A stretch of 39,128 bases of DNA from a virus (taxonomy: Duplodnaviria > Caudoviricetes): positions 1 to 39,128 of the IMG/VR virus record IMGVR_UViG_3300039208_000040; one strand, written 5' to 3'. Position 1 is the first letter of the stretch. Every line of letters starts with the position of its first letter. Both the position numbers and the translations under genes were made by a program. This document shows, in pieces, positions 13,601 through 32,911 of this stretch. The notes under the pieces were generated by a model. It was not told the DNA's origin. It did not search any database and saw only the letters and a program-made list of their open reading frames with translations.

Positions 13601-14320
13601 ATGCCGTACCCTAAGAAATCTAAGAATAAGAATGCCCAGCAGGTGGAGGCAAGAGCGTCAGGTGACTGGACTCCCTTGGTGCCATTGAATCCCCGGCAAT
13701 CTGAATACATCCAAGCCATCAAGTCTGACCCGGTAGTGTTATGCATCGGTATCCTTGGTAGCAGTAAGACTTACATTCCCTCCATCATGGCAGCTGATGC
13801 CTTACGTGCCAAAGAAGTAGAGCGTATCATCGTGGCCCGTCCATGTGAGGGCAAGAGTAAGTCTGCTGGCTTCTTTAAAGGTGACAAGAACGAGAAGCTG
13901 GAAGGTTGGTGTGCCCCTGTGACAGAGACCCTGAAGAAGCGTCTCGGAGTAGGTCACTATGAGGCATACCTTGCTAACGGTCGTATCGAGTTGTTGGCTC
14001 TGGAGCAGGTTAAGGGCCGTTCATGGGACAATGCCTTCGTCATAGTGGACGAGGCTGAGGACTTGGATGCAGCTGTTGCTAAATCCTTAGTCACCCGGCA
14101 GGGACAGAATACCACTATGGTAATAGCTGGTGACTTGGCCCAGAAGGATATCAAGCACCACTCAGGTCTGGATACCTTGCTGGCAGTGTCTGAGTACACC
14201 AACTTACGGATGTCCCTGATTGTCTTCGATGACTGGGATGAGCATTGTGTTCGGAGTGACGAGGCCCGTGAGTGGGGCCGGGGCTTCGAAGCATATGAGG
14301 CATTCCACAAAGGTACATAG
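13601..14320 (+). CDS. phoH: PhoH-like ATPase
   Basis: PLNPRQSEY, P-loop GILGSSKT, ARP, KGRSW, IVDEAE, TRxG, GDxxQxD and VRS motifs. Confidence 0.9.
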   Translation: MPYPKKSKNKNAQQVEARASGDWTPLVPLNPRQSEYIQAIKSDPVVLCIGILGSSKTYIPSIMAADALRAKEVERIIVARPCEGKSKSAGFFKGDKNEKLEGWCAPVTETLKKRLGVGHYEAYLANGRIELLALEQVKGRSWDNAFVIVDEAEDLDAAVAKSLVTRQGQNTTMVIAGDLAQKDIKHHSGLDTLLAVSEYTNLRMSLIVFDDWDEHCVRSDEAREWGRGFEAYEAFHKGT

Positions 14321-15329: not shown

Positions 15330-15715
15330 CTTCTCATGAATATCAATGTCTGAATGATGATGCACAGGCTGCATACGATGACTGGTATGATAGTTACGGA
15401 TGTTGCCACTGTGCCACCTCACCAGCACCATGTGGCAGCTGTACACACATCGGTAATCCTGAGAACCTGCGCAACTTCCCCGGTGCATGGAGGCCGGGAT
15501 GTGGCCCTAACTTCAGTAACCACGGCATAGTGTTCACTAAACCTGAAAGAGGTACAGTCAGAAGGGATGATGCTGCTGACGTTAACCGCCACTTCATTGA
15601 CCAGTATATGCAGGAGCCTGCACCCCCATTACCAGAGCCGGAGGAGCCAGTACCTCCCGGCCCAGAATCAACCAATGAACTACGCAAATACAGATACAGG
15701 AGCATTTATGATTAA
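15314..15715 (+). CDS. Cys/His-cluster protein with Pro-rich C-terminus
   Basis: GGAGG RBS; GCCHCATSPAPCGSCTH. Confidence 0.7.
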   Translation: MSDYLTSHEYQCLNDDAQAAYDDWYDSYGCCHCATSPAPCGSCTHIGNPENLRNFPGAWRPGCGPNFSNHGIVFTKPERGTVRRDDAADVNRHFIDQYMQEPAPPLPEPEEPVPPGPESTNELRKYRYRSIYD

Positions 15716-16106
15716 CTACAAGGGACAGCTTCGTATATGGCCCGACGCCTACAAGCGAGACATCGGTGCATTACAGGAGCTATGCCACGGCCTTGCTAAG
15801 GAAGCAGGCTGGTGGGAGGGTGTTGATGCCACTGACCCAAACATTATCGCTTCCAAGCTATGCCTTGTTCACTCCGAAGTGAGTGAGGCATTGGAGGGTG
15901 TACGTAAAGACCTGATTGATGACCACCTACAGCACCGTCCTATGGTAGAGGTGGAGCTGGCTGATACTATCATCCGGGTGCTGGACTTGGCCGGGGCCAT
16001 GGGCCTCGACATAGGTGGGGCATTGATAGAGAAGTTGCAGTACAACACGCAACGGGCCGACCATAAGCCAGAGAATCGTGCAGCTGCCGGGGGCAAGAAG
16101 ATATGA
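15708..16106 (+). CDS. MazG-like all-alpha NTP pyrophosphohydrolase
   Basis: HSEVSEALE...EVELADTIIRVLD...EKLQYN; AGGAG RBS. Confidence 0.85.
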   Translation: MINYKGQLRIWPDAYKRDIGALQELCHGLAKEAGWWEGVDATDPNIIASKLCLVHSEVSEALEGVRKDLIDDHLQHRPMVEVELADTIIRVLDLAGAMGLDIGGALIEKLQYNTQRADHKPENRAAAGGKKI

Positions 16107-25714: not shown

Positions 25715-26179
25715 TTATACCTCTTTAGTGTAAGCTACCTCTGTGACCATGTAACCTGCATCTTCTAATAGGTCAGGAGTGTTGCCTTTGTACTGTGGAT
25801 TATGGGATACCGTTAGGAATCTGATGCCGAGTTCCTTGATATCTTCCTCTATGTGTGCAAGCAGTTTACCAAAAATACCTCCATTGCGGTACTCCGGCAC
25901 GACGTAGAAGGAATCGGTCACTGCCTGCATCTCTCCTGCATGATGTAACATGCCGGATGCCAGCACTGCCATGTACGCTATGGGATACCTGCCCATGTAC
26001 GCAACATAGATACGCAGATGGCCTTCAGCCTCCGCATGCAGGTAGGCAGCGTCATCTAACTTCAGGTCTAATTCGAAGTTGCCGAAGGGCACCTCCTGCC
26101 AGTGGTCTCCCATGGCCTTGTGCATCTCTTCCACCAGCTGTGCGTAAGTGATAGTTCCTATTAGTAGTTCGTTATCCAT
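25715..26179 (-). CDS. GNAT-family acetyltransferase-fold protein
   Basis: FYVVPEYRNGGIFGKLL acetyl-CoA motif; position like T7 gp13. Confidence 0.85.
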   Translation of the reverse strand: MDNELLIGTITYAQLVEEMHKAMGDHWQEVPFGNFELDLKLDDAAYLHAEAEGHLRIYVAYMGRYPIAYMAVLASGMLHHAGEMQAVTDSFYVVPEYRNGGIFGKLLAHIEEDIKELGIRFLTVSHNPQYKGNTPDLLEDAGYMVTEVAYTKEV

Positions 26180-26198
26180 TTGTGGGTATCCTTAAATG

Positions 26199-26224
26199 AA
26201 GAAAGCCGCATCCGAAGATGCAGC
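26199..26224 (-). terminator. Rho-independent terminator with UUCG loop
   Basis: GCTGCATC TTCG GATGCGGC TTTCTT on the minus strand. Confidence 0.8.
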
Positions 26225-26237
26225 CTTGTGGGGAGAG

Positions 26238-26516
26238 TTACTTGGCTTTCGCCTTGGGCTTGGCTTTAGGCTTGGCCTCCTCTTTGGCCGTACCTTTCTC
26301 CAAAGAGTTGAGGTAGTTGTTCACTGCTGACTGAGCAGCACCTACTGAACTGTATCCACCTGATAAGCAGGGAGGTACTTTACCACCACTGCCCAGCTCA
26401 ATGAAGCGTACCGTGGCATTACTCTTCGCCACATAGTACAGTTCCTTGCCATTAGGGGTTGTGCCTAACAACACCTTGTTTGTCTTCCTATCTTCCACTA
26501 CGTGTCCTCCTGCCAT
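26238..26516 (-). CDS. Hypothetical structural-region protein
   Basis: Overlaps the adaptor end; Lys/Ala/Pro-rich tail. Confidence 0.7.
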   Translation of the reverse strand: MAGGHVVEDRKTNKVLLGTTPNGKELYYVAKSNATVRFIELGSGGKVPPCLSGGYSSVGAAQSAVNNYLNSLEKGTAKEEAKPKAKPKAKAK

Positions 26517-27246
26517 AGTTCGCTACTGATTCGTCACGCTGTGTCCTTGGTTCCAGCTCGCGCATCTTGATGTTCTGCCTACGGGCCAGACGCTCACTGC
26601 GTGGGTCTGCCGTCTGCCTTAGCCTGTAGTTGGCCGTGGCAATGGTCTCATTAAGTACCAAGGAGTGCATCCGTTCCGGTATCGGCAATGTCGCTGCCGG
26701 GTCGGTGAAGTCTACCGTTGGCTTAATGTGCCCTACTATAACAGAGTCAGCTATCAGATTCCCAACTCCTCTAGTGACATCGTAAGCGTCGAAGTACAGG
26801 TACTCTTCGTCGAAGCTTGTGTAGTAGGTTGGGCCTACGTTAGTCTGAATGTACATGGGTACTCCATCAGGGTTATTGATGGTAGTAACGTCAGCATCTG
26901 CCGGGTTACGGGCATGTAACTTCTCAAGGAAGTCACAAGGCTGCAAGTACGTTAGGTCACGAAACTTACCGTTGCTGTCCACATACCGGACACACTGGAG
27001 TTGTGTCACGTTGTCTGGAATCTTCAGCCTGTTCAGCTGCAAGTCACCTGCATCTCGTGCATCCAGCTGCACTACCCGGTCACGAAGGAACTCCCAGTCA
27101 CGACGGTCAAGTATCTCGTTGTATGTCTGCTTCAGGATGGTGCCGATGGCTAAGGACTCATTGGTCTCGTCAAGAACGTCAATCTCATCGGACTCAATCG
27201 CCTCACCCACCTGCTGCACAAACTGTAGTATCGTTAGCTTTGCCAT
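26488..27246 (-). CDS. Tail tubular protein A (adaptor)
   Basis: LTILQFVQQV...WEFL...PTYYTSFDEEYLYFDAYD...IPERM pattern of podovirus adaptors. Confidence 0.8.
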   Translation of the reverse strand: MAKLTILQFVQQVGEAIESDEIDVLDETNESLAIGTILKQTYNEILDRRDWEFLRDRVVQLDARDAGDLQLNRLKIPDNVTQLQCVRYVDSNGKFRDLTYLQPCDFLEKLHARNPADADVTTINNPDGVPMYIQTNVGPTYYTSFDEEYLYFDAYDVTRGVGNLIADSVIVGHIKPTVDFTDPAATLPIPERMHSLVLNETIATANYRLRQTADPRSERLARRQNIKMRELEPRTQRDESVANYGRRTRSGR

Positions 27247-27247
27247 G

Positions 27248-27535
27248 TTATCCCTCGGTTGATGTAGTGAACGGAGTGATACGGCCTATCAACTGGAAGT
27301 CTTTGCCGGGGGATGATTCGTACCGCAGCACTACCACCTTACCCACACCATTCACCTTAAGTTTAGTTTCAACTACCTTGTAAGGGTAGAACTGCTCGGC
27401 AACGTTGGCCCTTGCGAGCCGACGAGTGCTGAGTTTGTAAGCCTCCTGTTGAGGAGTCCACTTACCAGTGCCTGCATCCAGTGCGTAATCGAACTTAGCA
27501 GTGAGCAGGCAGCTGTACACGTCGGATAAAGTCAT
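27248..27535 (-). CDS. Probable detached C-terminal fragment of tail tubular protein B (nozzle)
   Basis: SCLLTAKFDY..GKW..QEAY...VVETKLKVNGVGKVVVLRYESSPGKDFQLIG matches my recollection of nozzle C-termini; GGGAGG RBS and TAATG coupling. Confidence 0.65.
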   Translation of the reverse strand: MTLSDVYSCLLTAKFDYALDAGTGKWTPQQEAYKLSTRRLARANVAEQFYPYKVVETKLKVNGVGKVVVLRYESSPGKDFQLIGRITPFTTSTEG

Positions 27536-28578
27536 TATACCTCCCGGAAGGTAATCTCGAAGCCACTACCTACGGCATCCACTTTGGCCTCAGTCCATGC
27601 ACCATTGTCAGACGGGTCTGTGTCCCGGATGTAGGTGGTCATCTTGTAGGCTCCTGACGAGGCAATGACATCGGTGCCGTTGTCGTAAGCAATACCGCCA
27701 ACAATCATCTGGTCTCTGAACTTCAGCTGTCCGGCATCCGTCTTCTTGGTGGCATTCACTGTCTGCACACCGAAGATAGTGCCGGGCGAGATACCCAAGT
27801 CTGAGAAGTTGGTGTTGTCGTAATCTTCCTTAGCACCCAGCTGACCTGCTTCCACGAAAGTAGTATCTCCGTCGTGTAAGGTTTCATCCATAGCTTGGTA
27901 GTTGGTAGCTGCACCAGTAGGAGTGAAGTTGTTATTAGTACCATTGGCCTTGGGACGTAGAGCTGTGACACGCACATCACCTAAGAAGGTGTTGTTGTCT
28001 GAACCACCAGTGTCCAGAATGTACAGGTCATCAATCCATGAATCATCACCCTCTGCACCACGAGTTATGCGCCACTTACCCATGGCACCGCCTCGGGTAT
28101 CCAGACCTGTGAGACCTAACACCTGTGTACCATTCACCTTAATCTCAATCTCACCCAGTGTAGCATGGGCCTTAACCCGTACTTCCACATACTGCCATAC
28201 CGATACAGTGAGGGCACTGGTAGCTGTGCCCAGTACCGATGTAGTCTTACCTATGGCATCGATATCTGCACCGTTGATTGAGATACCACCTTGCTGGAGA
28301 CCGCCTGTATCAAGGAACACGAAGTCAGCGAAAGCTACGCTGGCATCATACTTAAAAGCAAAGCCGAAGATACACTCCGTCTCTGTCGTGGTGATGTTCT
28401 TGTCCACTGTACCGTTACCAGCTGTACCGCCAGTAACTCCCGTTAAGTGGTAAGCTCCGGGGGTGAACCGTCCCTCAGTTGTCACGTTATGTGAGGTGCC
28501 ACCAGTAATGGACACAGCATCATACTTGTCTTCTGAGGCAGTGTAATGGTCGAAACCATCCATAAATAATAAACTCAT
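27535..28578 (-). CDS. Tail-associated beta-sandwich (LamG/ConA-like) protein, putative adhesin
   Basis: MSLLFMDGFDHY start; WQYVEVRV...IEIKVNG...IDDLYI LamG-like strands; second beta domain; Gly/Thr/Asp-rich. Confidence 0.7.
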   Translation of the reverse strand: MSLLFMDGFDHYTASEDKYDAVSITGGTSHNVTTEGRFTPGAYHLTGVTGGTAGNGTVDKNITTTETECIFGFAFKYDASVAFADFVFLDTGGLQQGGISINGADIDAIGKTTSVLGTATSALTVSVWQYVEVRVKAHATLGEIEIKVNGTQVLGLTGLDTRGGAMGKWRITRGAEGDDSWIDDLYILDTGGSDNNTFLGDVRVTALRPKANGTNNNFTPTGAATNYQAMDETLHDGDTTFVEAGQLGAKEDYDNTNFSDLGISPGTIFGVQTVNATKKTDAGQLKFRDQMIVGGIAYDNGTDVIASSGAYKMTTYIRDTDPSDNGAWTEAKVDAVGSGFEITFREV

Positions 28579-28587
28579 TGTCTACTC

Positions 28588-30765
28588 CTAAAGTGTGTAT
28601 AGTACTTCTGTTATTGACTGGCTCGCTCTGAAGTCAGATGGAGCTTTCATCAACACCTCAGTAACTGATTGTGACGCTCTCAGATTAGATGATGGTCTGT
28701 TCAAGACCTCCAGCACTGATTGCGATACACGTACCCCTGTACTCTGGTAGTACAGTGGCGGTAACTGGTAATAGCCTCCCGGCTCCAAGTTCTTACTCGT
28801 ATGCTGGAAGAAGGTATGCACGTACCGGGGAGTACCCTTAACGTGGAAGGCTCCCATATTGAACTCAGCGAACTCAATATAAGAACTCATCGGTATACCT
28901 ATACCATCTGTACTCGTATCCCACCAGTCTGTGAATGACCTGCTGTGGAAGGTGGAGAAGGTAAACTTATACCCGGCATCCACTGTGGAGTAAACCAGTG
29001 TGGCAGCTTTCAACTGAGTAATCTGTCCTGAGTCGGCCTCTACCTCTTCAGTAACAGGAGTCACACCATCCAGCTCTGTTACGTTAGTGCCGTCCAGTTC
29101 CAGTACTGGCACCACCGCAGTACCTGAAGTCAGGGGCTTGATTAGCGTTAGGCCCACTATCTCCGGGAAGTTCTGTGTGGCATCCTCTGCGATAGAGTAC
29201 TTATAGAATCCCCGGATATCGAAGTCGAGAATCAGGAACTTGTTGAAGGTTACATTGGTAGGTGATGTCTCCTCCACCACATCCCGGTATGCCCAGTATA
29301 TCTTACGCTGTTCTGGGATGTACACAGATGCTGCATCCCTCCGGGCATCAGCTGAGATGGACACGTAGAATGACTGGATAGTATTCTGTGTCAGGTTCTG
29401 GTCATCCAGTCCTATCTCATTAGAGGTAAGCTGGATAATGCCGTCGATACCAAAATAGAATAGAGACCCTTCGGCCTCCACTACACTCTTCGGCCCAAGT
29501 GCCCCAACCTTGCTCACCTTGGATAGGCGTAAGCTTGTCGCTGTTAACGCGCTACCTATTTCAGCACCAGAGATAAACCACACACCATTGGATGCAATGG
29601 CAGCTACACCACCACCTATCTCTTTCAGGGTATAGATTTCACCTACACCCGGCATAGGTAGGAATCCGCCATCGGTATCAACCAAATCATTAATCTCATC
29701 AGCTGTAGGGTCAGCTTGTTGGAAGCATTCCCCGTCGATGTCAGGCTCAGTTAACTGGCGTGAGTAGAACACACCGCCTACTACGTTCTGGGTATTGGGT
29801 GATGTGTAAAATGCTCGGCCCTGATGGAAGGCTACCGACTCTGGCCGTGTCGCAAATGTGGCAAAGCCTGTACCGGGACAACCCAGTGCAGTGTCGTAGT
29901 CCTTGTTAAAGGCGTTCAATATGAAGTGGCCCTTCGGTGCCGGGGTATTACCTAAGTTACTCTCCCTTACGAAGGTGTGGTCAAACACCAAGTTACCACT
30001 GGCATTGGTCACGATACCCACGGACATGTTATCTGCATTGCTTGGGAAGTCACCGTTAGTTCCTGCGGCCAGTCCTCCCGGTGCGCCTGTTCCAGCACAA
30101 AGGTCAGTACCTGCTGCCAGTCCAGTGAACTTCAGGATGTTGGCATCTGTCCAGCCTTGGTTACGTAAGTTGTAGTAGTGGTTACGGGTCAGGCTGGTTG
30201 GCCGTTCCTGTATCTCCAAGCTATCGTCCAGACCTTCCATGTCCCTGATTTGAATATCCAGCTGTATCGCTGTGAACGACGTGCCGTCATACGATACCCG
30301 GACAGGTTCCATGTAGGGGTTCACTACATACAAGTTACCTAAGCCGCTGGCTACCTGTACTGGGTTCCGTTTTAACTCACCCAAGTCTACGGCATATAGG
30401 CTCATGTCCAGTGTGCCCAGCAAGCTTTGGCTGATGGCACCCACCTGCGCATAGAACTGAAGCTCTGCCCCTATCTGCTGTACTACGATGTTCAGCGTAC
30501 CTGAGTTAGCTACGAACTCCCATAAGTGGGTAGAGAAGGCAAGGTCTGGGAGGGCAGCTTCGACCAGTACACCTCCGTCAATTGAGTTAGCCTTCCACTG
30601 TTGTTCTAAATCTAAGCCGGGACGACGACGCACACTGCCGTCTGGGTCTATGATACAGTTGTCCACATCAATGGCTGCATCCTCTGGGAAGGACAATGCG
30701 GTGAACTCAGTGACAAAGCCACGAGTAACCTGTATCTTCTGGTCTACTCCTCCACGTCTTGCCAT
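28588..30765 (-). CDS. Tail tubular protein B (nozzle), N-terminal fragment with C-terminal repeats
   Basis: RGFVTEF...DGSVRRRPG start, YNLRNQGW, FHQGRAFY, CFQQADPT, NGVWFISG beta-propeller-type pattern. Confidence 0.85.
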   Translation of the reverse strand: MARRGGVDQKIQVTRGFVTEFTALSFPEDAAIDVDNCIIDPDGSVRRRPGLDLEQQWKANSIDGGVLVEAALPDLAFSTHLWEFVANSGTLNIVVQQIGAELQFYAQVGAISQSLLGTLDMSLYAVDLGELKRNPVQVASGLGNLYVVNPYMEPVRVSYDGTSFTAIQLDIQIRDMEGLDDSLEIQERPTSLTRNHYYNLRNQGWTDANILKFTGLAAGTDLCAGTGAPGGLAAGTNGDFPSNADNMSVGIVTNASGNLVFDHTFVRESNLGNTPAPKGHFILNAFNKDYDTALGCPGTGFATFATRPESVAFHQGRAFYTSPNTQNVVGGVFYSRQLTEPDIDGECFQQADPTADEINDLVDTDGGFLPMPGVGEIYTLKEIGGGVAAIASNGVWFISGAEIGSALTATSLRLSKVSKVGALGPKSVVEAEGSLFYFGIDGIIQLTSNEIGLDDQNLTQNTIQSFYVSISADARRDAASVYIPEQRKIYWAYRDVVEETSPTNVTFNKFLILDFDIRGFYKYSIAEDATQNFPEIVGLTLIKPLTSGTAVVPVLELDGTNVTELDGVTPVTEEVEADSGQITQLKAATLVYSTVDAGYKFTFSTFHSRSFTDWWDTSTDGIGIPMSSYIEFAEFNMGAFHVKGTPRYVHTFFQHTSKNLEPGGYYQLPPLYYQSTGVRVSQSVLEVLNRPSSNLRASQSVTEVLMKAPSDFRASQSITEVLYTL
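28591..28734 (-). repeat. Three tandem 17-aa (51-nt period) repeats RxSQSxxEVL
   Basis: VRVSQSVLEVLNRPSSN / LRASQSVTEVLMKAPSD / FRASQSITEVLYTL. Confidence 0.9.
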
Positions 30766-30774
30766 AAGTCCTCC

Positions 30775-31392
30775 TTAAGTAGCACGTATCATGCGTACAG
30801 ACGTAACAGCATCTTCGACTGTAAGGTTAATCGTCTTGTCTGAGGCTACCCACAGGGATAGCACATCTCCTGCACTAAGAGACGCCCATTCGTGTGCGCT
30901 CATGTTATGGAACTCTCCCGAGTTACGTAAGAAGTTCTTAGGTCGGCGTCCGGGAACAATCACACCATTGACGGCGAACTTAAAAGCAATCACGGTCGAG
31001 GCTACAGAGGATGAGGCATCTACCCAGATATGTAACTCATAGTCACCATCTTGCTGTACGGTGAGTGTGTCTGCCTGCTGAGTGATACCGTTGTTTAATC
31101 CGTGAGGAAGGGCATCTGTTATGCCTGTAACCTGTATGTAATCTGAGTTTGTAGCCAGAGTAGAATCTGTTGCAGCTGTCAGTGCTATGGTGGACGTATT
31201 GTTAGTCACGTTCAACTGACCATAGTGTAATGTGGAAGTGTCCAGTTCGGAATGTTTAAGTTTACGTGCTTCGGTTGTACCGTCCCCTTTAGAGATAGGA
31301 ACCTTACCTACATCGGCAGCTCCAGCAGTAAGGGTGGTCATATTCTTAGGTTCGTGCATGTTGGTCTCGCCAACATCCTTATGTAATCCCAT
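30775..31392 (-). CDS. Short fibre protein with C1q/TNF(BclA)-like C-terminal domain
   Basis: GAGGA RBS before ATG 31392; N-terminal HEPK anchor; LTVQQDGDYEL...LSAGDVLSLWV. Confidence 0.65.
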   Translation of the reverse strand: MGLHKDVGETNMHEPKNMTTLTAGAADVGKVPISKGDGTTEARKLKHSELDTSTLHYGQLNVTNNTSTIALTAATDSTLATNSDYIQVTGITDALPHGLNNGITQQADTLTVQQDGDYELHIWVDASSSVASTVIAFKFAVNGVIVPGRRPKNFLRNSGEFHNMSAHEWASLSAGDVLSLWVASDKTINLTVEDAVTSVRMIRAT

Positions 31393-31408
31393 TGTAAATT
31401 CCTCAAAT

Positions 31409-31433
31409 AAAAAAGGAGGCACAAGGCCCCCTT
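31409..31433 (-). terminator. Rho-independent terminator after the capsid genes
   Basis: AAGGGGGC cttgt GCCTCCTT TTTT on the minus strand. Confidence 0.85.
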
Positions 31434-31458
31434 ATTAAGTACTTTGCTTACGAGTAGT

Positions 31459-31953
31459 TTACGCTCGTGCAAGCTGCTCTTCAAGTTCTAGTACAACTTG
31501 GAACTTACCAGCAGTGAATGTACCAGTTGCAGCTACTACAAGCTGACCAGCATCTGCACCGATAGAAGCACCAATCAGGGCACCGTCACATGCGATGTGT
31601 GCGCCAGCTGTTAAGGCAGCTGTTGCCACAGCAGCATCGATACCATCAGCATCGATAACTGTGCCATCCGGTTGGTATAAACCGAAGTCGTATGAAGTAC
31701 CGCCAGCAGCAGCAGTCAGCACACGGATATGTGCAGACTTGATTACCGCATTAGCAGGTACACGAAGAATCAACTCATCCAGACCATTCACTGGAAGGTC
31801 ATCATAGCTGAAGGTGTACTCCAACTTAGAGATGCCCTGTGCATGAGCGTACTTACTTGGTGCTACATCTTCAATGACGCGAGGGCCATAGTCAGTAGCA
31901 GCTCGGCGTTTACTGCCAGCAGTTGCGCCAGCAGTGATAGAGATACGTGCCAT
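31459..31953 (-). CDS. Virion structural protein, probable capsid decoration
   Basis: Directly after MCP and before the terminator; TAAGGAG RBS; Ala/Gly-rich beta protein. Confidence 0.7.
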   Translation of the reverse strand: MARISITAGATAGSKRRAATDYGPRVIEDVAPSKYAHAQGISKLEYTFSYDDLPVNGLDELILRVPANAVIKSAHIRVLTAAAGGTSYDFGLYQPDGTVIDADGIDAAVATAALTAGAHIACDGALIGASIGADAGQLVVAATGTFTAGKFQVVLELEEQLARA

Positions 31954-31963
31954 GTTAGACTCC

Positions 31964-32911
31964 TTATCCTACTTGGTCAGTGTCAGAACCAATAACAACT
32001 AGGTTCTCGTCGCGCACCAGACCTGAACCCCAACGGGCAGTAGTCTGGGTCTGTAGCTCATGGATTTTGTTATCCATCTCAGAGATGAGCTTAGGCTTAC
32101 GACGCCATGCCAGCACGAAAGGTAAGATACCTTGTTGCATTGACATGAACAGGTTAGCCTTACCAGCGGTGGTAGTCAGACCATCGATAGTCTCGTTCAT
32201 ATCCGGCAGTAAGTTAGATTCGAACACGTCGAAACCATATACGTTACGGATGAAACGGAAGTTAGACTCGATACCAGACTCAATCACACCTTCCCATTTA
32301 GGGTTATTGCTGACGTTTACCAAGTTAGTGGTAGTCTCCAGCGCGTATGCAACTGAAGGGTCAACAATCGCAATCAGGTTCTGACGACGAACCTTAGCTT
32401 TCTTCAGGGAGTACCCGGCAAAAGCGAAGTCTTGCGGCTGCATGATTTCGTTAGTACCAGATGCAATCTTACGGTGAGCAACACCGTTGATTAAGTTCTG
32501 GTCGTCTGTTCCGTTGAACTGCTGCATAGCCAGAGCCAGCGTATCAGTTTCAAAACGTTCCATGATTGCCTGTGCCTGTTCACCCGGAATGGCAGAAAGC
32601 AAATCGTTAGCCCACATTGAATCTTCCAACAGCACCTCAGAGATAGAGTTAGCTGCTACTACAGGAGCGTTCATTGTGATGGTTGTCTCACCGTTATCCA
32701 GTGCGTCGAAGGTTACTTCAGCGCCTTCTGGCAGGTCACGTACAGCAGGTGTACCAAGAGACGGCATAGTGAAAGCTGTGCCATCTGGGAAGTCTACCTG
32801 ACGAACGAACGGTACGCCTAAAAGATTCTCGTGAAGAATCTCTTCCAGCTGCTGTTGCCATAACTCCGAACGGATGATGCTCTGGGAGTTAGTAGTGTTG
32901 TTACCACTCAT
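31964..32911 (-). CDS. Major capsid protein
   Basis: 315 aa after scaffold; IRSELW, AIVDPS and VYGFDVFESNLLP patterns of HK97-fold podovirus MCP. Confidence 0.9.
   Translation of the reverse strand: MSGNNTTNSQSIIRSELWQQQLEEILHENLLGVPFVRQVDFPDGTAFTMPSLGTPAVRDLPEGAEVTFDALDNGETTITMNAPVVAANSISEVLLEDSMWANDLLSAIPGEQAQAIMERFETDTLALAMQQFNGTDDQNLINGVAHRKIASGTNEIMQPQDFAFAGYSLKKAKVRRQNLIAIVDPSVAYALETTTNLVNVSNNPKWEGVIESGIESNFRFIRNVYGFDVFESNLLPDMNETIDGLTTTAGKANLFMSMQQGILPFVLAWRRKPKLISEMDNKIHELQTQTTARWGSGLVRDENLVVIGSDTDQVG

Follow-up and report, generated by a model that had tools for sequence, protein, structure and literature searches.

The DNA stretch analysed here, referred to as the window, comprises 39,128 nucleotides of an aquatic tailed virus (positions 1 to 39,128 of IMG/VR record IMGVR_UViG_3300039208_000040), and its positions 27,248 to 30,765 raise the question of how the gene for a tail nozzle (tubular tail protein B) can be divided in two by another gene, and what the division brings to the virion. 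Three open reading frames (ORFs) lie there on the minus strand, on which all features of this locus are located: a 725-aa nozzle large chain (28588-30765), a 347-aa partner protein (27535-28578), and a 95-aa nozzle small chain (27248..27535). Residues 1-661 of the large chain (28783..30765) contain the N-terminal platform strands, the beta-propeller, and the platform strands up to the break. They are followed, after ...HTSKNL (residue 660), by a Pro/Tyr linker (residues 662-678, 28732..28782) and three repeats with a period of 17 aa, which start at R679, R696, and R713 and whose cores are called docking tags 1 (residues 679-687, 28705..28731), 2 (residues 696-704, 28654..28680), and 3 (residues 713-721, 28603..28629). 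A first-pass annotation, made from the letters of the sequence, had given these ORFs, their coordinates, the linker, and the three repeats correctly. Our best explanation, which we consider right with a probability of roughly three in four, is that the two nozzle chains likely reassemble as one platform domain, while the C-terminal tags are predicted to bind the neighbouring lectin-like protein, likely forming bead-on-rope arms.

Two ORFs tile one tail nozzle

The two outer ORFs occupy successive parts of a single nozzle homologue. On PHROG 8094 (tail appendage, 769 positions), the 725-aa ORF covers positions 1-669 (E = 1e-105) and the 95-aa ORF covers 682-758 (E = 2.3e-13), while on a profile of 90 intact nozzles (738 positions) the large ORF extends to position 638 and the small ORF matches 648-735 (E = 4.7e-21 in a search of three sequences). 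A whole-length tubular tail B match is satisfied by the two ORFs jointly and by neither alone, and the 347-aa protein has no match to PHROG 8094 or to the intact-nozzle profile. In addition, the small chain shares 51% identity over 84 aa with gp52 of phage VpV262 (E = 4e-30), which is annotated in the VpV262 record as similar to the nozzle C-terminal region. The statement in the first-pass annotation that the 95-aa ORF represents the nozzle C-terminal part is therefore borne out by both profiles, and the alignment, in which the 725-aa ORF stops short of this part, also argues for its proposal of a nozzle made from two chains.

For the fold analysis, an intact homologue, P0116 (model pLDDT 88.5), was used in place of the chains of the window. 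Ranks 1-32 of a Foldseek search with this model are all phage tail nozzles, and the VIA Z values to nozzles are 21-26. The nozzle of phage T7, gp12 (PDB 6R21), belongs to the same fold family and aligns from end to end (Z 21.3, rmsd 3.8, 505 residues aligned; P0116 residues 4-761 to gp12 2-791), although it is a single chain, and in T7 a trimeric fibre docks between adaptor and nozzle. The break maps to the hairpin 654-675 between two long strands of the P0116 model. The length of the corresponding segment ranges from 5 to 27 aa in the 90 intact nozzles, so this site tolerates change, and the earlier placement of the break in a variable loop holds.

The small chain corresponds to strands 676-682, 720-725, 734-740, and 747-758 of the intact P0116 model. 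According to the available passages of a study of T7 gp12, its platform is a nine-strand barrel that draws three strands from the N-terminal part and the rest from the C-terminal part, and contacts the adaptor (PMC6702177). By this analogy, and by that with phage A1002 (below), the small chain would supply the last four long strands of the nine-strand platform as a separate polypeptide, and the nozzle would be a hexamer seated on the adaptor ring. The new C-terminus of the large chain would likely leave the nozzle at its head-side end, near the adaptor, rather than at the tip, a placement that follows from the strand order in T7 gp12. A location at the tail tip, as annotated at first, is therefore probably wrong, since the platform domain of T7 gp12 touches the adaptor ring at the head-side end.

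The repeats as likely docking tags for the partner protein

The first-pass annotation had read the repeats as a docking peptide for the LamG-like neighbour, and two lines of evidence, co-occurrence and a complex model, make this the likely reading. Among 21 distinct loci with a split nozzle, the interval between the two nozzle genes (the slot) contains a partner gene in all ten loci with at least two tags and, at the cut-off applied, in 0 of the 11 loci that lack a tag array, VpV262 with its distant partner relative and different repeat being one of these 11. IMG/VR was also scanned with the motif only (two tags 17 aa apart), a search blind to neighbouring genes, which returned 57 loci on 53 viral contigs. 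A partner gene lies within 4 kb of the tag on 47 of the 53 contigs, or on 41 of 47 when six nozzle carriers are set aside, compared with 0 of 127 control loci with intact nozzles (1.26 Mb). The six remaining contigs comprise one with the partner elsewhere on the contig, three that are cut by the contig end at most 504 bases upstream, and two without a partner. The 52 tag-carrier ORFs have 2-10 tags each, which are standalone in 15 ORFs, N-terminal in 16, C-terminal in 16, and otherwise placed in five, and the carriers include the unrelated tail families PHROG 778, 1082, 1101, 553, and 394. Judged by gene neighbourhood, the tag and the partner gene thus travel together both inside and outside the split lineage.

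The complex model comprised two copies of the partner and nozzle residues 662-725, with the third tag left empty for reasons of size. It scored 0.84, compared with 0.00 for the best of three controls, and this mark is attained by 116 of 157 solved complexes and by two of 215 mismatched pairs. Between runs, 94% or more of the contacts agree, and the partner has a pLDDT of at least 67. In the model, each partner copy holds one tag as an added beta-strand antiparallel to its strand 269-277, with contacts to residues 202-207 and 336-340; tag 1 is held by copy 2 and tag 2 by copy 1, while tag 3 is unoccupied, and the interface spans nozzle residues 675-709. On the partner side, the predicted interface involves residues 199-209, 263-285, and 336-340, and the docking groove contains R203, P209, G270, Q272, and G339, which are conserved across 34 distant homologues. 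The prediction therefore supports binding between tag and partner. Sequence searches of the PDB, run for the tag tail and the large chain as well as with the partner profile, returned chance rows only and no like complex.

Taken together, the nozzle would be made as two chains, of which the 95-aa chain completes the platform barrel, and the freed C-terminus of the large chain would present the three 17-aa repeats. Each tag would add a beta-strand to one copy of the 347-aa partner in the conserved groove of its C-terminal domain, so that a hexameric nozzle would have six arms close to the adaptor ring and could hold as many as 18 copies of the partner, with the variable domains of the partner facing outward and possibly binding host surface glycans. 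Two chains for one nozzle are plausible because there are precedents in the halves of phage phiRIO-1 and in the structure of phage A1002, both discussed below.

Several observations weigh against this explanation. The complex job, with two copies and alignments of its own, is unlike those on which the tool was calibrated. Both the 53 tag contigs and the 127 control loci retain near-duplicates, and the motif was designed from positive cases. Two near-identical loci, L234 and L251, carry tags but lack a partner inside 4 kb. In the opposite direction the coupling is looser, since the strict motif lies within 2.5 kb in 23 of 48 loci found from the partner; by eye, about nine of the others have looser versions of the motif and about 15 have none in the displayed genes, so members of the partner family can attach otherwise. 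The concanavalin A (ConA)-like fold of the partner, common to lectins and lyases, shows no function. Finally, the available part of PMC3556154 (Table 2) lists eight virion proteins identified by gel-band mass spectrometry for Caulobacter phage phiCbK, a shallow survey, and the phiCbK tag and partner proteins, gp102 and gp103, are absent from it, a result that lends no support to their presence in the virion.

Spread of the split and exchange of slot contents

The split is not confined to the window. Of the best 97 protein homologues (P0004-P0100), 94 extend as far as the break and none goes on into the C-terminal part, which is present in 20 of the next 22. In a classification of 173 loci, the survey of relatives that had been proposed, 24 had a split nozzle (21 distinct loci) and 127 were intact at this site; a further 20 were truncated, and two had no C-terminal part in view. 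Six of the distinct split loci are cultured-phage or reference records or close copies of such records, including VpV262, 1.209.O, 1.077.O, and 1.015.O. A tree of the N-terminal part was built from 72 of 146 eligible rows after thinning, with phiRIO-1 and three duplicate loci left out, and on this unrooted tree the split needs two changes, compared with a mean of 17.7 after shuffling. On this distribution, the split is lineage-wide, old, and shared by relatives. One locus (L103:5001-7124) shows the nozzle as two ORFs of 108 and 588 aa, which represents either a further split or a frameshift.

The contents of the slot vary among the split loci. Tagged slots hold two to three 17-aa tags and a ConA/LamG-like partner gene; other slots hold domains fused to the large chain, including a vWA domain, or other genes (Vibrio phages 1.209.O and 1.015.O); and three of the 21 loci have an empty slot (L005, L061, and Vibrio phage 1.077.O). 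The tag state changes at least four times among the 20 split rows of the tree. The comparison of these loci shows that slot contents have been exchanged within the split lineage. In some split nozzles (P0009, P0018, P0019, P0022, P0024, P0027, and similar), 80-380 more residues follow the third tag, so a fused domain can, as read from these sequences, cap the rope. At slots with a fused vWA domain, a gene of about 410 aa comes next (L002:8490-9722 and L006:818-2044; the L002 gene, which was tested, belongs to no PHROG family), possibly forming another anchor-and-partner pair. In Vibrio phage 1.209.O (L217:1320-5992), the large chain has a 36-aa tail with one tag-like strand, and an 867-aa gene of no PHROG family comes after it. 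As well, four loci (L063, L073, L101, and L148) form a second split group with tags and a partner gene, which is about 32% identical to the window nozzle and stands apart on the free tree; it appears to be either a deep relative or the product of a second break at the same hairpin.

The first-pass annotation had a cassette landing in the loop. The cassette does sit at the break; that it caused the split is not shown by the loci, in view of the empty slots, the unrelated cargo elsewhere, and the repeated changes of tag state. An insertion of tag and lectin gene that broke the nozzle gene, with the empty and other slots as later losses and replacements, would be compatible with the best explanation, and we regard it as a tenable reading, though its chances fall below even. 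It agrees with the presence of tag and partner in both split groups of the tree, the four-locus group included, and with the same slot of VpV262, which holds a distant partner relative and a different repeat of 16-17 aa; a single origin of the split is not rejected either (p-AU 0.10, clade test with 42 rows). However, the empty slots lie on separate branches, deep split rows carry other cargo (L082, L217, and L219), and the free tree needs two changes for the split. The tree is unrooted and therefore neither orders gain and loss nor tells us if the split was caused by the cassette.

The partner protein and its possible roles

The partner belongs to PHROG 2448 and was modelled with a pLDDT of 95. 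Residues 1-204 (27967..28578) form a ConA-like beta-sandwich with VIA Z of 15-17 to lectins, lyases, and gp23 of a mycobacteriophage, and residues 205-347 (27535..27966) form a conserved C-terminal beta domain with the predicted tag-binding groove. For the fold of the latter, searches with the whole model were filled by the ConA domain, and the Atlas gave only unnamed, mostly viral clusters. A Pfam search of the three locus proteins gave no matches. In BFVD, proteins with both domains of the partner in the same arrangement occur in phages such as JS26, Kokobel1, Enc34, AchV4, and Saba (TM up to 0.76), in many cases with several paralogues, and these structural matches reach beyond what the sequence search found. 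A link to flagellum-binding fibres, considered in view of Chi-like phages among the structural matches, has no support in the available passages of PMC12264135 and was dropped.

The partner might dock on the tags and nevertheless serve as a spacer, as a decoration that adds stability, or as an enzyme that cuts glycans rather than as a host adhesin, which we judge rather unlikely. Glucuronan lyase and alginate lyases stand beside lectins among its top fold matches, the homologue in Pam4 is annotated as a polysaccharide lyase, Hardies et al. noted a lyase similarity for the VpV262 gene in the available passages of their paper (PMC4819975), and phages with an empty slot manage without the partner. 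Against such roles, the ConA part (residues 13-180) of 98 close homologues has a mean identity of 31%, compared with 64% for the C-terminal domain, and so varies far more than the anchor, as expected for a ligand-binding part; moreover, a similar domain occurs in mycobacteriophage gp23, whose PDB entry 9n6a is titled receptor-binding domain (Z 15.3, rmsd 3.1, 178 residues aligned to the partner).

Comparison with phages VpV262 and phiRIO-1

The split is real, and a split at the same site is already on record for VpV262 (Zobellviridae, Vipivirus; NC_003907) and is shared by the 21 distinct loci. VpV262 gp54, gp53, and gp52 have the same order and break as the window, with a large chain, a 359-aa gene, and a 98-aa C-terminal part. 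The partner profile matches its gp53 with E = 7e-8 in a search of that one sequence, which marks gp53 as distantly related to the partner, and the predicted structure of Q8LT51, taken as VpV262 gp53 by length and organism, resembles the partner with a TM of 0.68. VpV262 differs in its 221-aa tail, which carries the different repeat mentioned above and ends in an extra domain. According to the available passages of PMC4819975, the displaced nozzle C-terminus of VpV262 was regarded as an unusual plasticity of one phage, and the small gene was interpreted as a domain repeat belonging to a fibre module; these passages give no description of repeats, docking, or a shared slot for VpV262.

If the published reading were extended to the window, the small gene would be a repeated nozzle C-terminal domain reused in a fibre module, and the large chain would complete its own platform. 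The legend of Figure 7 in PMC4819975 and the long tail of the VpV262 large chain speak for it, yet no split large chain keeps a match to the C-terminal part, and the empty-slot alleles end 16-17 residues after the last nozzle match (in the window, the first part of the linker, to the LPP motif, corresponds to this stop point), with the small gene 9-13 nt further on. In this layout the small gene is therefore the only copy of those strands, and we find the reuse of a repeated domain improbable.

The two halves could also be rejoined in the cell, by an intron, ribosomal bypass, or readthrough, to give one ordinary nozzle chain, for which the chances are very slim. In seven of 19 split relatives, two of the three empty slots among them, the large and small genes share a reading frame. 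The frames differ, however, in the window and in the other 12 relatives, and in 17 of the 19 the small gene has a start of its own together with a Shine-Dalgarno-like word. No intron-like Rfam match occurs in positions 26000-32000 at E up to 0.1, the one unrelated match being far under its gathering score. At the junctions of the window, a Shine-Dalgarno word AGGAG (28585..28589) overlaps the nozzle stop codon, 6 nt ahead of the partner ATG, and the 95-aa gene is coupled to the 347-aa gene by TAATG, as annotated at first; the strong ribosome-binding site ascribed to the 95-aa gene is right as to its sequence, GGAGG, but its spacing of just 4 nt 5' of the ATG is short. These relatives with separately startable small genes, together with the 21 distinct loci, are in accord with the earlier view that the split is functional rather than decayed.

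Similar to the nozzle of the window, tubular tail B of phiRIO-1 (Pseudoalteromonas; Zobellviridae, Melvirus) is split, and according to the available passages of PMC4819975 its halves, gp44 and gp40, are separate virion polypeptides that run separately on gels, and two inserted gene products are virion proteins as well. Unlike the window, phiRIO-1 has a mid-protein break (320 + 393 aa) and inserted genes of other families; with its break at another site, it represents an independent event.

An assembly chimera or a decaying gene can be set aside with near certainty, as nothing was found in favour of either, 21 distinct loci have the layout, and single contigs of three further sequencing runs (X2, X3, and X4) span both junctions without joints (one difference in X2, none in X3 and X4), all four runs (X1-X4) belonging to one study of which X1 may be the source of the record. 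In run X1, the contig depth over window positions 27125-28048 is 273, compared with 45-55 on the flanks, with a loose end at 27154. Follow-up of the raised depth showed a sole variant contig, with a depth below 5 and 36 listed C-to-T differences, and these irregularities are likely library artefacts.

Rope-and-bead systems and a portable tag

A split nozzle has been solved in Pseudomonas podophage A1002, where, in the available passages of PMC13730344, a rope binds 11 fibre dimers by beta-sheet augmentation. Like the window, A1002 has a two-chain nozzle (gp39 nozzle-rope and gp42 nozzle-base) completed by strand complementation and a rope with separate proteins docked on it, and its bead genes gp40 and gp41 fall, by gene number, between the two nozzle genes. 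In A1002, however, it is the propeller and fibre dock that are broken, and the C-terminal fragment bears the rope, whereas in the window the platform is broken and the rope ends the large N-terminal chain. The beads of A1002 and of Ralstonia phage GP4 are dimers of 140-171-aa proteins, while the bead proposed for the window has 347 aa and two domains and was modelled with one copy per tag. Beads were compared by sequence, and against the GP4 protein only: a GP4 protein of 140 aa, a length that points to gp80, belongs to PHROG 240 and has no match to the partner profile (E = 1.3), and none of nine GP4 tail-region proteins contains the tag motif. The system of the window thus appears to work like the rope and beads of A1002 and GP4 without being a member of that group, as break, rope-bearing chain, and bead family differ, and its beta-augmentation is a prediction of the model.

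The same partner family and tag are present in phiCbK, as gp103 (PHROG 2448) and gp102 (PHROG 13560), both annotated as hypothetical. There the tag is a standalone 69-aa peptide, gp102, that adjoins the partner gene; phiCbK differs from the window in being a siphovirus with a tag that is not fused to a nozzle. In the literature searched, which did not extend to subscription papers (including the original VpV262 and GP4 papers) or supplements, no paper on the tag-partner pair was found.

What is already known, therefore, is that nozzles can be split, that a break exists at this very site in VpV262, and that bead fibres can be attached by beta-augmentation; new here are a swappable slot found across the lineage, a portable tag together with its family of partners, and a strong prediction of docking. 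On balance, we favour the view that the 17-aa tag and the C-terminal domain of PHROG 2448 constitute an undescribed, portable tag-and-catcher pair of tailed phages, in which 2-10 tags can be grafted onto almost any virion protein and the tag number would set the valency of the lectin, and that the split nozzle is a standing expansion port where cargo is swapped and the core stays untouched. If this is true, the tags would be borne by the nozzle in podoviruses, by hub and tail proteins in siphoviruses, or by a free adaptor peptide, and an essential virion protein could become a permanent accessory port. A testable role would follow for two widespread families without a function, PHROG 2448 and 13560, which include genes of the model phage phiCbK, and the puzzle on record for VpV262 would get a new reading. 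With a nine-residue strand that recruits a folded domain, rope-and-bead attachment would also have a second chemistry, apparently independent of the one in A1002 and GP4, and such a strand might serve as a display handle.

Phage identity and neighbouring genes

The window has its replication genes on the plus strand and its structural genes on the minus strand, in two opposed arms, a layout given as a feature of Zobellviridae in the available passages of PMC9960094. Matches were found to 20 of 67 VpV262 proteins, with nearly all of the order kept (terminase 49%, capsid 51%, and DNA polymerase 47%), and both layout and matches fit an assignment to Zobellviridae. No phage RNA polymerase was found among 25 scanned proteins, which include all ORFs above 300 aa of this linear record with an estimated completeness of 86%.

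Directly downstream of the small chain lies a gene for the head-tail adaptor (tubular tail A; 26488..27246, minus strand), which belongs to PHROG 7592 and is 37% identical to VpV262 gp51; in related Vibrio phages, the gene at this position carries the annotation head completion adaptor. Promoter-like sites are not in excess (five, compared with 6.6 in shuffles), and no convincing terminator was found within the slot. The G+C content of the slot (0.475-0.51, compared with 0.48-0.53 in its neighbours) shows no sign of foreign origin, and no RNA datasets containing the stretch were listed. The gene upstream of the nozzle (30775-31422) shares its N-terminal 30-60 aa or so with relatives, while the remaining 215-422 aa are wholly variable across them, and it can be read from this pattern as a second variable slot for a fibre or decoration. 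Finally, the replication arm contains a PhoH-like gene (13601-14320) and a pyrophosphatase-like gene (15567-16106), both of which are ordinary for aquatic phages.

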